This document shows, in pieces, positions 55,259 through 64,000 of a stretch of DNA of 64,000 nucleotides. Each line of letters starts with the position of its first letter. Position 1 is the first letter of the stretch. Below the pieces are notes generated by a model that saw only the letters and a program-made list of their open reading frames with translations, made no database searches and was not told the DNA's origin. The stretch spans positions 64,001 through 128,000 of the forward strand of contig CAWAWS010000009.1 of NCBI GenBank assembly GCA_963785725.1. Direction: 5' to 3'. The stretch comes from an uncultured delta proteobacterium (GTDB lineage: Bacteria; Myxococcota_A; Polyangia; Palsa-1104). The position numbers were made by a program, and so were the translations under genes.

Positions 55259-55684
55259 TTACTCGCGCGTCGGCGTGACGGCGGCGGCGAGCGCGGCGAA
55301 GCTCTCGTCGTAGCGCCCGGTCTTGGCGTGCAAGCGAGCGAGGCGCGCGGCGAGCGGATGACGGCCGGGAATGCGCGCCGCTTCGGCGTACGCTTGGTCG
55401 GCGCCGGGAAAGTCGCCGCCCGCGGTCAAGACGTCGCCGAGCGCCACCAGCATGAGCCGACGCGCCGACGGGCGCAGCGCGGCGCGTAGGCCGCTGCGCA
55501 AAAGCTGCGCGGCGCGCGGCGGATCGGCACGCCCGACGGTGAGCGCGGCGCCGACGCGGGCCTCGGCGAACTCCGGCGCCAGCTCGACGGCGGCGGCGAA
55601 CGACTGCGCCGCGGCCTCGACTTCGCCGGCGCGCAGCTGCTCGCGGCCGCGCGCGAAATAGCGCCGCGCCACCGTCGCCGACAT
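55259..55684 (-). CDS. TPR-repeat protein, 141 aa
   Basis: YFARG...AAAQSFAAAVELAPEFAEA and LGDVLTAGGDFPGADQAYAEA TPR patterns. Confidence 0.78.
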   Translation of the reverse strand: MSATVARRYFARGREQLRAGEVEAAAQSFAAAVELAPEFAEARVGAALTVGRADPPRAAQLLRSGLRAALRPSARRLMLVALGDVLTAGGDFPGADQAYAEAARIPGRHPLAARLARLHAKTGRYDESFAALAAAVTPTRE

Positions 55685-55719
55685 CAGTCGACCTCGCGCC
55701 GCGACATCAGTCGACCTCG
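55679..55719. repeat. Perfect 18-bp direct repeat (period 23) duplicating a stop/start junction and creating the mini-ORF MSRREVD (55684..55707, minus)
   Basis: CGACATCAGTCGACCTCG at 55679-55696 and 55702-55719. Confidence 0.85.
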
Positions 55720-56330
55720 AGCCAGGAGAAGCGATTGGCGGGCGACGCGGCTTCGTCCTTCTTGTCGCTGCTCGTCGTCGGCGGCGCGGGGGCTTGGTTC
55801 GGCGGCGTGGCCGGCGGCGCCTGATGCGACGGCGACGGCGCGACCGGCGGCGGCATCGGCTGCGGCGACGAAGCCGGCGTCGGGCTCGAGCGCGGCTCGG
55901 GCGGCATCGGTCGTGGCGCCGGCGTCGTCGCGGCCTGCGGCGCCGCTGTCGTCGGCAGCGCCGGCGCAGTCGTCACGACCGGCGGCGTCGGCGTCACCGG
56001 CATCGCTTGCGGCTCCGGCGCGCGCGCAGCTTCGATCGGAATCGAACGGCCGCCGGCGCGCACGTGCACGCGTCCGCCGGCCACTTCGAACAGCGCCAGC
56101 TCGGGCAGATCCACATGCAGCTGCAGCCACGTCATCAGCTCGGCGAACGACAGGCCTTCGAGCTCGGTGCGCGCGTCGAGCATCGCCAGCGCGCCCGTCG
56201 CCGACGCCGGCGAGCCTTCGACGACGTACTCCTTGAACACGTAGGCCAGGATCTCTTGCAGCTGCTCGCGCGGATACTTGTCGAGCGCGCCGCGGATCTC
56301 GCCCACCATCTTCTTGACGTCTTTGCTCAC
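55707..56330 (-). CDS. Hypothetical protein: helical N-domain, Pro/Ala/Thr linker, C-terminal RFSWLEVD
   Basis: GTG overlaps the pentapeptide-gene stop (GTGA) after GAGGGAG; SKDVKKMVGEIRGAL... Confidence 0.75.
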   Translation of the reverse strand: MSKDVKKMVGEIRGALDKYPREQLQEILAYVFKEYVVEGSPASATGALAMLDARTELEGLSFAELMTWLQLHVDLPELALFEVAGGRVHVRAGGRSIPIEAARAPEPQAMPVTPTPPVVTTAPALPTTAAPQAATTPAPRPMPPEPRSSPTPASSPQPMPPPVAPSPSHQAPPATPPNQAPAPPTTSSDKKDEAASPANRFSWLEVD

Positions 56331-57016
56331 GACTCCCTCGTAGGCGCGCGCAAGCCGTCGGGCAAGTCGGCGCCGCCCAGCTCGCAGTCGACGAAGCGCG
56401 CTCCGTCGACGATGGCGCCGGTCAGCGTGGCGCCGCCGAAGTGGCAGCGCACGACGAGCGCGCCCGAAAAGTCGGCGCGAAAGAGGTTGGCGCCGCGCAG
56501 ATCGCACTCGATGAGGACGGCGCCGTCGAAGCGCGCGCGGGTCAGCTCGGCGGCGCCGTTGGGCGTCGGATCGGTGAAGCGGCACTTGACGAGCACCGCG
56601 CGCGCGGCGCGCAGGCCGTACAAGTTGCAGCCGACGAAGCGGGCGTTCGAGAGCTTGGCGCCTTCGATGTCGAGGTTGGCCGCTTGCACGCGCTCCCACG
56701 CCAACTGCTCGACCAGCGCGCCACCGAGGCCTAGCTCGGTCAGGTCGCAGTCGACGGCGCTCGCGCGCAACATCGTGGCCTCGGCCAGCTGGGCGCGACG
56801 GAGGGTGACGCGGCTCAACGTCGTGCGCGAGAAGTCGACCGACTCCAGCGCGGCGCCGTCGAGCGTGCAGCGTTCGAAGGTCGCGCCCGAGAAGTCGCCG
56901 CCGCTGACGCGCAAGCCCGGCGCCTGCAAGTCGCGATAGGTGTGCCCGCGCAAGGCGCCGTCGCGCGCCAGATGCTGCAGCTGCTCGCGGCTCTCGACGG
57001 TGACGACGTCACTCAT
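56327..57016 (-). CDS. Pentapeptide-repeat protein
   Basis: Nearly the whole length is (A/C)(D/N)(L/F)xx repeats, e.g. GDFSGATFERCTLDG and CDLRGANLFRADFSGA. Confidence 0.9.
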   Translation of the reverse strand: MSDVVTVESREQLQHLARDGALRGHTYRDLQAPGLRVSGGDFSGATFERCTLDGAALESVDFSRTTLSRVTLRRAQLAEATMLRASAVDCDLTELGLGGALVEQLAWERVQAANLDIEGAKLSNARFVGCNLYGLRAARAVLVKCRFTDPTPNGAAELTRARFDGAVLIECDLRGANLFRADFSGALVVRCHFGGATLTGAIVDGARFVDCELGGADLPDGLRAPTRES

Positions 57017-57118
57017 CGCGCGGTCGCTCGCGGCTGCCGTCGCCGGCGCAGCTGCCGCGACGGCGTCGGGCGCGACCCTCGCCACGCGCCGAACGTCACG
57101 GCCGGCGCGCGCTTCATG

Positions 57119-61856: not shown

Positions 61857-62254
61857 TCAACCCCACTTGCTGACGGTGAGCTTGACCGAGCCGTCGGCCT
61901 GCACCGCGTTGGTATCGATGGTGTAGCCCTGCTCTTCGACGGCCGCCACGACGCGCTGGTAGGCGTACTTCGCGTTCAGCTCCTTGACGACCTCTTCTTC
62001 CTTCAGCCCTTTGGTGGTCTCGACGCCCCACCAATCGGCGTCCAGCGAATAGTTGCCGTCCTGCTTGCTGCACGACGCCGACGTCGTATTTGCCCATGTC
62101 GATGGACGATCGCCGCCTTCATCGTCTGCCCGCGATAGCCGCGCACGACGACGCCCGCTTCGTCGTGCTGATACTTCCAGCCCAGCTGATCGAGCGCCTT
62201 CTTGAGCGCCGTCAGATCGTTGATCTTCGTCGCGACTTTGGTGAAATGCGACAC
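61857..62254 (-). CDS. DUF1257 (Ycf35-like) protein (frameshift(s) at about 62070-62105)
   Basis: SHFTKVATKINDLTALKKALDQLG...VRGYRGQT; then YSLDADWWG...KYAYQRV...QGYTI...DGSVKLTVSKW. Confidence 0.87.
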
Positions 62255-62257
62255 GAC

Positions 62258-63822
62258 TCAGACCTCCAGCTTGCGCGAATTCTCGATCGAGATCGCGAAC
62301 GGATCGTGTTTGCTGCCGCGCTTTTCCTGCACCGCCGACGCCGGCCGCGCGCGCGTCTTGGCCCACTCGCGCATGCTGTCGATGCCCTCTTTCATCGTCA
62401 CCGCCAGCGGCACGATCTCGCGCGCCGAGTTGACGATGCCGTCGGTGGTCGACGTCGCCGCCGCCGTCGAAGGCGTCGTAGAGCGCGGAGATCACCGCCT
62501 GCTCGATCTCGGCGCCCGAGAACTCCGGCGTCGCCTCGACATCACGCTTGCCGAGGTCGATCGGTCGACGGATCGCGCTTCTTCTTCTTGAGGTGGATCT
62601 CGAACACGGTCTTGCGCTCCTCACGCGACGGGCAGATCGACGAAGAAGATCTCGTCGAAGCGGCCTTTGCGCATGAGCTCGGGCGGCAGCGAGCGGACGT
62701 CGTTGGCGGTCGCGATCACGAACACCGGCGACGTCTTCTCCTGCAGCCAGGTGACGAAGGTGCCGAACACGCGCGAGGTCGTGCCGCCGTCCGACATGTC
62801 CGACGAGCCGGTGCCCGAGAAGCCCTTTTCCATCTCGTCGAGCCACAGGACCGCGGGCGCGATCGCCTCGGCGGTCTTGATGGCCTTGCGGATGTTCTCT
62901 TCCGACGCGCCGACGAGCCCGCCGAAGATCTTGCCGACGTCGAGGCGCAGCAGCGGCATCTGCCACGCCGCGCCGACCGCCTTGGCCGTGAGCGACTTGC
63001 CGCAGCCGGGCACGCCGATGAGCAAGATGCCCTTCGGCAGCGGCAGCCCGAAGTCGCGCGCCTTCGACGTGAACGCGCCGCGCCGCTTCTGCAGCCACTC
63101 CTTCAGCGTCTCGAGGCCGCCGATCTCGTCGAGCGACTCCGAGGCCTCGTAATACTCGAGGATCCCGCACTTGCGGATGATGTGCTTCTTCTCGCTGAGC
63201 ACGGTGCCGATGTCGAAGGTCTTGTTGCGCACGATCGACTTGGCGAGCACGTTCTCGGCCTCGACGTAGCGTCAGCCCGAGCGCCGCTTCGACGAGCCGC
63301 TCGCGACCTTGCGGATCGCCGGCCGGTCCCGGCTCGACGCCGACGGGCAGCTCCTGCAAGAGCTTGCCGATGATGCCGTCGATCTCGGTGCGATCGGGCA
63401 GCTCCCAATCGATGATCGCGACTTCCTTCTCCAGCTCCGGCGGCACCTTCAAGAGCGGCGACAGAAGCAGCACGTTCTTCTTCGATTCCTTCAGATCGTG
63501 CGCCAGATCGCGCAGCTTGCGCACCACCGTCGGATTGTCGACGATAGGCGTGGAAATCGCGCAGCACGAAGATGCCGGGACCGTCGAAGCCGGCGATGTG
63601 ATCGAGCGCCTTGATCGGGTCGCGCACGTCGCCGCCACGAAATTCACCCTGCAGCTTGACGAAGCCGCGCGTGATCGACCACGCCGCCAACACCCGCTCA
63701 CGACGCAGCGCAATCTGCCGCAGCTTCTCTTCGACGCGCCGCTCTTCCGACGACACGATGTAGATGAGCGGATAGCGCGCCTTGATGAGATCTTCGACTT
63801 CGACGGCGCTCGCAATGGCCAT
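62258..63822 (-). CDS. Ycf46-like AAA+ ATPase (several frameshifts, about 63545, 63270 and 62625-62450)
   Basis: [108 protein letters not shown]; ends SRKLEV. Confidence 0.9.
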
Positions 63823-63830
63823 TGGATTCC

Positions 63831-64000
63831 TCAGCTCTCTACGACTTCGCGCAGCTTGCGGAGGAGACCTTTGGCATCTTCGGTGCGATCGACCGAGACG
63901 TTGATGGCGTCTTCCAGCGTGCGGACGGCGGCGTGATCGGGCACCGAGCTACCATGCTCGGCGACCAGATCCTTCGCCAGGAGAATATTGGTGCGCAGCT
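63831..64000 (-). CDS. 3' end of an upstream helical protein of the same operon (runs off the window end)
   Basis: Open frame ...LRTNILLAKDLVAEHG...KGLLRKLREVVES-stop ends 8 nt before the Ycf46-like ATG; too short to classify. Confidence 0.6.
   Translation of the reverse strand, partial: LRTNILLAKDLVAEHGSSVPDHAAVRTLEDAINVSVDRTEDAKGLLRKLREVVES

Follow-up and report, generated by a model that had tools for sequence, protein, structure and literature searches.

A Ycf46-type ATPase, DUF1257 and DUF2997 mark a subtype of extracellular contractile injection systems in Myxococcota and Spirochaetota

Among contractile injection systems (CIS), the closest described relatives of the system reported here are the extracellular ones (eCIS), such as Afp of Serratia and PVC of Photorhabdus, of which the PVC ATPase, Pvc15, loads cargo through D2 (PMC11495950; here and below, cited sources stand for those passages of them that were covered). 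The present system was found in a stretch of 64,000 nucleotides (the window; positions 64001-128000 of contig C9) from the genome of an uncultured delta proteobacterium (G000, 88% complete), the last part of which encodes a Ycf46-type AAA+ ATPase, a DUF1257 protein and a DUF2997 protein, together called the triad. The triad marks an eCIS subtype that is widespread, in Myxococcota and Spirochaetota, and for which no earlier description was found in the literature searched.

In the eCIS catalogue of Geller et al. (PMC8213781, supplements 1-12), the counts within eCIS operons are 1/1,433 for DUF1257 and 0/1,569 for DUF2997 in the parts covered; other eCIS loci of that catalogue do include FHA genes. 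The covered text of Zhang et al. (PMC3482391) names a CDC48-like ATPase and lists spirochaetes for PVC systems, and DUF1257, DUF2997 and Ycf46 do not appear in it. The cyanobacterial triad genes, of which DUF1257 has been equated with ycf35 (PMC4284462), form a stress operon or lie beside the ferredoxin gene fed7, with tail genes unmentioned in the passages covered (PMC13683863, PMC4284462). Expressed eCIS clusters have been reported from uncultured marine Myxococcota (PMC11937823), and these may be of the subtype described here. Loci with the triad may also stand in eCIS catalogues without comment, given that two raw rows for DUF1257, and one Treponema genome, occur in the covered source data of PMC12923769. 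Searches on the triad families and on myxobacterial and spirochaete CIS, with subscription papers outside their coverage, returned no description of the triad in an eCIS.

In the window, the minus-strand genes run in the order FHA/coiled-coil 3' end, Ycf46-type AAA, DUF1257, DUF2997 and WHD-AAA-AAA (Pfam), with gaps of 8, 3 and 3 nt and a TAGTG overlap (61649-61645) between the DUF2997 and Afp15-like genes, as read from the sequence. A second minus-strand group follows beyond two opposite-strand genes:

63831..64000, minus strand: 3' end of a 665-amino-acid (aa) FHA and coiled-coil protein (FHA, E 3e-16)
62258..63822, minus strand: Ycf46-type AAA+ ATPase (Pfam), frameshifted in the assembly, single close copy in the genome
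61857..62254, minus strand: DUF1257 (Ycf35 family; Pfam), 131 aa in relatives, single copy, frameshifted in the assembly
61647..61853, minus strand: DUF2997 (Pfam), 68 aa, single copy
59457..61647, minus strand: Afp15/Pvc15-like ATPase with a PF22977 N domain and tandem AAA (Pfam), frameshift at about 60835
57119..57745, minus strand: stand-alone DUF4157/eCIS_core protein, 208 aa (Pfam, E 2e-17)
56327..57016, minus strand: pentapeptide-repeat protein (Pfam)
55707..56330, minus strand: c28, 207 aa, with the C-terminal tail RFSWLEVD (read from the sequence), without a Pfam family
55259..55684, minus strand: small TPR protein (Pfam)

Pfam and the reading of the sequence bear out the gene order, strands and domain calls given in an earlier account of the window, made from its letters alone (the sequence-only reading). 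That account had listed an unknown protein at the edge; the gene is indeed present, and it is the 665-aa FHA/coiled-coil protein.

The tail genes begin approximately 6 kb beyond position 64000, on the same strand as the triad, and continue from the end of C9 to a second contig, C13, the start of which overlaps C9 by 758 bp at 98.5% identity:

G000:C9:128001-140313, minus strand, in order towards the window (Pfam): Phage_GPD hub, Zn-ribbon, gp25, Baseplate_J (about 1,000 aa), PASTA-Tail_P2_I
G000:C9:128001-140313, minus strand, nearer the window, after PASTA-Tail_P2_I (Pfam): c2 (520 aa, CIS13-like), Zn-ribbon-FHA, signal-vWA-transmembrane (TM)-FHA, TM-Zn-ribbon-FHA
C13:1-11395, further upstream (Pfam): Pvc16_N, sheath, tube, putative chaperone, DUF6760, sheath, tube, 1,160-aa gene, CIS_tube

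Together these comprise the hallmark set of an eCIS: two sheaths, two T4 gp19-type tubes, gp25, Baseplate_J, Tail_P2_I, GPD, the tail terminator Pvc16_N (DUF4255) and the initiator CIS_tube. The two sheath genes on C13 are the only sheaths found in the genome. The baseplate families TIGR02243 and TIGR02242 scored above cut-off in NCBIfam on the orthologues of the relative G003, and an Afp15-type AAA and DUF4157 are present, as in eCIS (Pfam). Type VI secretion families (TssB/TssC, Hcp, TssJLM, ClpV) were not seen among the locus genes, which match phage-sheath and gp19 families, and no lysis family was found among those scanned by Pfam, which include membrane accessory proteins with hydrophobic segments. 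The 1,160-aa gene, a possible tape measure, has no family match in Pfam or NCBIfam, and the match of c2 to CIS13 is limited to residues 11-155 and lies far below cut-off (NCBIfam). A spike OB gene is located on C7 and PAARs on C33 and C30, that is, on contigs other than that of the tail locus; we infer that they belong to this injection system. The closest spike orthologue is likewise on a separate contig in 4 of 5 relatives, with a weak match within the locus in G059. The part of the window that holds the triad is thus almost certainly the downstream end of an eCIS gene cluster. The sequence-only reading had reported no tail genes and proposed a machine that could work without a tail, an effect of the window edge, since a near-complete eCIS locus lies directly upstream on C9 and C13. 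Its fallback, that tail genes may simply lie upstream, was right, and the discovery that it had named as undoing its proposal, an eCIS locus directly upstream, came with the reading beyond position 64000.

Some features of these genes are recorded here in their own right. The spike gene (G000:C7:895606-897324; L011:1435-3156) stands alone, is the sole Phage_base_V match in the genome and is followed by a 290-aa Pro-rich gene without a known family. The first tube gene (L008:8424-9365) encodes a tandem double gp19 domain of 309 aa. A second, shorter c2 paralogue (45% over residues 7-327) is located at G000:C16:149805-150767, distant from the locus.

The triad recurs beside tail genes in other genomes, so that the remark of the sequence-only reading that its presence among eCIS genes is both unusual and conserved is supported, in Myxococcota and in Spirochaetota. 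In a set of 61 relatives, DUF1257 was identified in 36, and in 21 of these on one contig with Baseplate_J; in 20 of the 21 it is on the same strand, 9-18 kb downstream, and in G008 it is 60 kb away. A search with the ATPase yielded 80 loci, the flanks of which were inspected for tail genes. Such genes were recovered in 19 of 30 Polyangia-type loci (the remaining 11 have less than 4.4 kb upstream), in 16 of 19 spirochaete-clade loci by tblastn (17 with Pfam), in both L085 and L089, and in none of the 29 loci from other groups. Among 201 Myxococcota genomes, DUF1257 was found in 51, a sheath in 95 and an orthologue of c2, which serves as marker of the subtype (E < 1e-60, with six weak matches excluded), in 50; DUF1257 and c2 occur together in 47 genomes, c2 alone in 3 and DUF1257 alone in 4. 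A sheath is present and DUF1257 not found in 46 of these genomes, and the link of the triad is therefore to one subtype.

In 251 Spirochaetota genomes, DUF1257 was found in 5 and a gp19 tube in 6, with both in 4, where they lie 2.2-2.4 kb apart; the fifth DUF1257 is a contig-edge fragment. The AAA, DUF1257 and DUF2997 genes are each apart and interspersed with tail genes in G061 and G063, and in G064 DUF1257 is 12 kb from AAA and DUF2997, within the tail-gene locus. The spirochaete loci share an accessory set of FHA, signal-vWA-TM, pentapeptide, c28, c2 and DUF4157 genes; the pentapeptide gene lies immediately upstream of the c28 homologue, and no FHA/coiled-coil partner was found in the spirochaete loci examined. 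A 128-aa gene after the spirochaete DUF2997 was considered as a divergent DUF1257 and rejected, as it matches a tail-chaperone-like gene and DUF1257 is elsewhere in the locus. Immediately upstream of the ATPase, several spirochaete loci have a radical SAM gene of the NrdG type (L091:9399-9968, L083:9398-9985); no glycyl-radical partner was found among the spirochaete locus genes scanned, and no homology between this gene and the radical-SAM-like protein of the window.

Of the 54 places with DUF1257 in Myxococcota, 19 were inspected: the ATPase is present in 18 and tail genes in the flank of one. At the detached ATPase loci, an FHA-type gene lies directly upstream of AAA in 16 of 17. At 10 inspected Myxococcota loci, DUF2997 is followed by a gene of another family, k3 (185-270 aa; L152:10277-10993, L156:6511-7185, L153:8442-9002), for which neither Pfam nor NCBIfam gave a family and G000 gave no match. 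In Planctomycetota (L112, L108), the triad is found with peptidase S26-like, TPR and T2SSE/PilT-type ATPase genes, and in L112 also a radical SAM gene, without tail genes.

All protein-level work was done on intact orthologues of relatives in place of the frameshifted genes. We take the ATPase to be of the Ycf46 type, a label adopted from the sequence-only reading; no Ycf46 model appeared for it in the Pfam or NCBIfam output. The model of the G003 orthologue (pLDDT, the predicted local distance difference test, 79.6) shows two alpha/beta domains, with a tail of low confidence at residues 496-517. The protein aligns over both rings of p97 (D1-D2), with the N domain absent, and its Walker motifs are degenerate in D1 and intact in D2. 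Threading unfoldases of AAA+ clade 3 are defined by an aromatic residue in pore loop 1; this loop reads GLVG in the window ATPase, with Leu at that place, and the residue is Leu in 37, Ile in 1 and Tyr or Phe in 7 of 45 ATPases of the clade. The C-terminal tail is predicted to be disordered and ends in RKLEV.

DUF1257 and DUF2997 are predicted to bind each other. The modelled complex of DUF1257 from G012 with DUF2997 from G000 scored 0.66, and the best of three controls 0.00. The runs agreed in 100% of contacts, and the partner pLDDT was at least 61; the mark set for this score is reached by 116 of 157 solved complexes and by 2 of 215 mismatched pairs. The predicted interface is a strand pairing between residues 122-128 of DUF1257, its last strand, and residues 7-12 of DUF2997, its first strand (ELEITI). 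The monomer model of DUF1257 (pLDDT 86) has an alpha/beta fold with a weak KA1/TBP-like resemblance. Foldseek gave no match at E < 0.001, and the best structural matches were to KA1 domains (VIA Z 6.6, root mean square deviation 3.0 over 79 residues), an arrangement that is widespread.

A C-terminal tail of the form R..LE[VIL] is common to the ATPase and to c28. The c28 protein consists of a conserved N domain of about 100 aa, a Pro/Ala linker and the tail RFSWLEVD, and spirochaete homologues end similarly (e.g., RFSNLEL); its homology across the two phyla is supported with the tails excluded (hhalign 96.4%, E 1.3e-9), and the ESM Atlas gave no usable match. The strict tail pattern is found in 40 of 73 ATPases, 13 of 14 c28 proteins and 4 of 1,376 other open reading frames (ORFs), and a looser one in 45/45 clade ATPases and 23/1,376 other ORFs, both patterns having been composed after the sequences had been seen. 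In family f49 the tails of both proteins change to FR.LE (e.g., GFRGLELE and GFRGLEFD in L155).

The second ATPase of the window, the Afp15-like one, has a D1 Walker B without Glu, an intact D2 and an aromatic pore loop, KFVG. The genome holds four PF22977 matches, three of them over cut-off. The Afp15-type N domain comes directly after DUF2997 in 6/12 genomes of family f1 (contig ends were checked for only some of the misses), in 4/4 of f2 and in 0/19 of f3, and not in G059. The Afp15-like gene thus follows DUF2997 in 10 of the 36 genomes with DUF1257, and the two ATPase modules do not form one conserved operon as had been proposed. Another Afp15-like ATPase, at G000:C7:786914-796951, has a gp19 tube-like gene (317-aa frame) about 9 kb away and is possibly part of a satellite cargo or tube locus.

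From these sequences and models, we consider that the Ycf46-type ATPase, DUF1257 and DUF2997 may constitute the dedicated remodelling unit of the subtype. The motor would be p97-like without the N domain, for which the DUF1257-DUF2997 dimer would substitute as an adaptor, drawing in the motor together with tail-tagged partners. Both the ATPase and c28 would dock on the dimer through their R..LE[VIL] tails, as an added beta strand in the manner of the KELEI strand of DUF2997, and thereby bring motor and client together. The FHA and vWA membrane proteins would hold the machine in place at the inner membrane or gate it there, and the kinase and the PP2C phosphatase of the window would act as a switch. 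As client, a component of the tail or of membrane docking would be favoured over a cargo protein, because the pore loop is mostly non-aromatic and because Myxococcota keep separate Afp15-type loaders. The motor would then act on the assembly or disassembly of the tail and the Afp15-like ATPase would load cargo, a division of labour that the Leu of the one pore loop and the Phe of the other would fit. That the triad is such an adaptor-guided, p97-like remodeller serving the tail has, in our estimate, an even chance of being right. That it acts directly on the particle or its cargo is probable, and that it does either this or serves as a signalling unit, as discussed below, is highly probable. 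A bolder version, which we put forward as a doubtful idea, is that myxobacteria and spirochaetes have a cell-retained, membrane-docked and reusable CIS, in which the Ycf46 motor, led to tail-tagged clients by the DUF1257-DUF2997 adaptor, would be the counterpart of ClpV, recycling or re-arming the tail under FHA/kinase control, and that orphan ycf46/ycf35 genes would use the same tail-adaptor code.

Several observations weigh against a role of the triad in remodelling the tail. Outside Polyangia the triad is usually distant from tail genes: among the matches listed for the 201 Myxococcota genomes, DUF1257 is within 20 kb of a sheath or baseplate gene on the same contig only in G000, G059, G209 and G107. 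Two nearly complete genomes, G016 (96%) and G194 (92%), have c2 and a sheath without DUF1257 and the ATPase, and the triad is therefore not indispensable; the module is kept in G160, where sheath and c2 were not found. Triad genes also occur without a nearby tail in cyanobacteria, Planctomycetota and Omnitrophota. As related genomes are not independent, the counts overstate the association and none of them is a statistical test. Tail-linked and FHA-linked ATPases do fall on one branch of 45 rows (Shimodaira-Hasegawa-like approximate likelihood ratio test, SH-aLRT, 99), with L160 outside, which speaks for the link, but the tree is a quick one, from rows picked by similarity to the query and with no cyanobacterial Ycf46 included. 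The tail patterns, being drawn from the sequences that they describe, count in the same direction. Four FHA genes are present in the locus, of which only that of the FHA/coiled-coil protein has the GR motif, the other three having GT or GS; the Arg of this motif has a generally known role in FHA domains, and its loss in 3 of 4 weakens the idea of a phospho-switch. Lastly, spirochaetes in which Afp15 was not found still have DUF4157 genes, and the Ycf46-type ATPase could load cargo there.

This last point leads to the main rival, in which the triad is the cargo loader of the subtype, replacing Afp15/Pvc15 and threading DUF4157-type or tail-tagged cargo into the tube, with the Afp15-like genes as extra loaders. 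It is the main rival chiefly because the spirochaetes are without Afp15: PF22977 was not found in any of the four spirochaete genomes whose loci hold tail genes, in which the proposed pairing of two ATPases accordingly fails, and DUF4157 genes are nevertheless present in the loci of G061, G062 and G063. The dead D1 and live D2 are also as in Pvc15 (PMC11495950), and 7 of the 45 pore loops do carry Tyr or Phe. Set against these are the 37 with Leu and the one with Ile, and the Afp15-like genes themselves, usually multi-copy and scattered, of which 39 of the 61 Myxococcota relatives keep between one and nine. Cargo loading is a serious reading that we still regard as rather unlikely. The DUF4157 genes are likewise multi-copy and scattered, with eight matches in G000, as compared to the single-copy triad genes, and those away from the tail locus are likely to be cargo. 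They include G000:C33:180894-181805 and matches on other contigs; two of the eight share one 4,038-aa frame.

A role of the FHA-AAA-DUF1257-DUF2997 unit in signalling or stress, as a switch that times the production or firing of the particle without touching it, is in our judgement distinctly unlikely. When detached from tail genes, the unit does stay with FHA and often with PP2C, pentapeptide and c28 genes, and the cyanobacterial ycf46 operon is induced by stress and ppGpp (PMC13683863), but in spirochaetes the triad genes lie dispersed between structural genes, and the loci there yielded no FHA/coiled-coil partner. That the triad is a passenger, captured once beside tail genes and co-inherited without a shared function, would agree with the single ATPase clade of the quick tree and with the two near-complete genomes that have a tail and no triad. 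We hold this to be very improbable, as the co-occurrence outlasts physical linkage (47 shared against 7 discordant genomes) and all three genes are retained inside rearranged spirochaete loci. The tail-less machine of two ATPase modules in one operon, for which the TAGTG overlap and the adjacency in 10 genomes of two families might speak, is hardly tenable with tail genes directly upstream and with no such adjacency in f3 or G059.

The remaining genes of this part of the window are the following:

58589..59425, plus strand: 2-oxoacid dehydrogenase acyltransferase-like gene (Pfam)
57878..58582, plus strand: c18, 234 aa, no assigned family, divergent from the DUF4157 gene
54494..55219, plus strand: PP2C phosphatase, convergent on the TPR gene (Pfam)
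53616..54479, minus strand: radical-SAM-like protein with CxxxCxxC (PF04055, E 0.059, below cut-off)
51539..53069, plus strand: Ser/Thr kinase, frameshift-split

In a further correction of the sequence-only reading, the DUF4157-pentapeptide-c28-TPR genes are likely a separate transcription unit, because two opposite-strand genes split the DUF4157 group from the ATPases, one of them facing the DUF4157 gene head to head. A scan for promoters and terminators gave signal at chance level. The acyltransferase-like insert is a passenger: it was not seen at the corresponding place in G002, G003, G010 and G021, all of which keep c18 there. No family was found for c18 in Pfam or NCBIfam, and its ESM Atlas matches are unnamed clusters only. 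The DUF4157 protein of the window has HExxH (HELTH) and no toxin domain. Several Polyangia relatives retain the PP2C gene next to the module, as do 4 of the 17 detached Myxococcota loci, and in several Polyangia relatives the kinase is retained nearby.

Frameshifts affect three genes of the module, AAA, DUF1257 and the Afp15-like gene. Indels had been suspected there, and among the places listed nine extra bases (63270, 62630, 62563, 62546, 62538, 62451, 62106, 62062 and 60835) are missing from short-read contigs of close soil relatives (four soil runs, with 2-4 of 4 runs for each place). The frameshifts are likely errors of the long-read assembly, since the contigs of the relatives are without the extra bases. 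A 17-bp direct repeat (gaggtcgactgatgtcg) at window positions 55677-55720 doubles the junction of the c28 stop and the TPR start and creates a 7-codon ORF; the two genes abut directly in G003, and the repeat in G000 is possibly an assembly artefact. Two tandem lipoprotein-like genes (window 49478-51518; a PPC-like domain and a small beta domain) adjoin the kinase in Polyangia relatives. An envelope-spanning complex built on homology between these lipoproteins (window 49.5-51.5 kb) and a 149-aa spirochaete lipoprotein was considered and is not supported (hhalign 1.1%). Further away, window 43703-45471 is presumably a thiC-like gene with an upstream leader.

The subtype is present in about a quarter of the sampled Myxococcota (50/201) and in a few spirochaetes, and its conserved ATPase differs from the textbook Afp15. 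Among the spirochaete carriers is a cultured one, Breznakiella homolactica (L091), for which no Afp15-type gene was found. Through the subtype, Ycf46, Ycf35 and DUF2997, for which no mechanism is known in cyanobacteria and plastids, come to stand beside a machine whose products can be seen and counted, and with the predicted dimer and the short shared tail, binding could be tested on small recombinant proteins and peptides alone. If true, the tail-and-adaptor code would account for the ycf46/ycf35 genes that are orphans in cyanobacteria and plastids.

We compared the locus to the known systems. It shares with the eCIS/PVC loci of Serratia and Photorhabdus (PMC8213781, PMC3482391) Pvc16_N, sheaths, tubes, CIS_tube, GPD, gp25, Baseplate_J, Tail_P2_I, an Afp15-like AAA and DUF4157. 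It differs from them in the additional Ycf46-type AAA, DUF1257 and DUF2997, in its four FHA genes and vWA membrane protein, in the location of the spike OB gene and the PAARs on other contigs, and in that the Afp15-type gene was not found in the four spirochaete carriers. The gene at 59457-61647 resembles Pvc15/Afp15 in its tandem AAA and N domain, with only D2 active in Pvc15 (PMC11495950), whereas the Ycf46-type gene has no N domain, a mostly non-aromatic pore loop and a conserved C-terminal tail. For the latter ATPase, p97/Cdc48 is the best match in sequence and fold over both rings (E 9e-20, 550-590 columns), from which it differs in the missing N domain, the dead D1 and an identity of about 19%, and ubiquitin genes are absent from the locus. 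The cytoplasmic CIS of Streptomyces, with its single-pass membrane protein CisA (PMC12237407), also has a membrane accessory protein encoded in its locus; the likeness to CisA is one of description, and the membrane proteins of the window locus bear vWA and FHA domains. DUF1257 and DUF2997, finally, belong to the same Pfam families, over cut-off, as their counterparts beside ycf46 in cyanobacteria and plastids, and stand here next to a CDC48-like AAA, but the genes of the window are embedded in a CIS locus.

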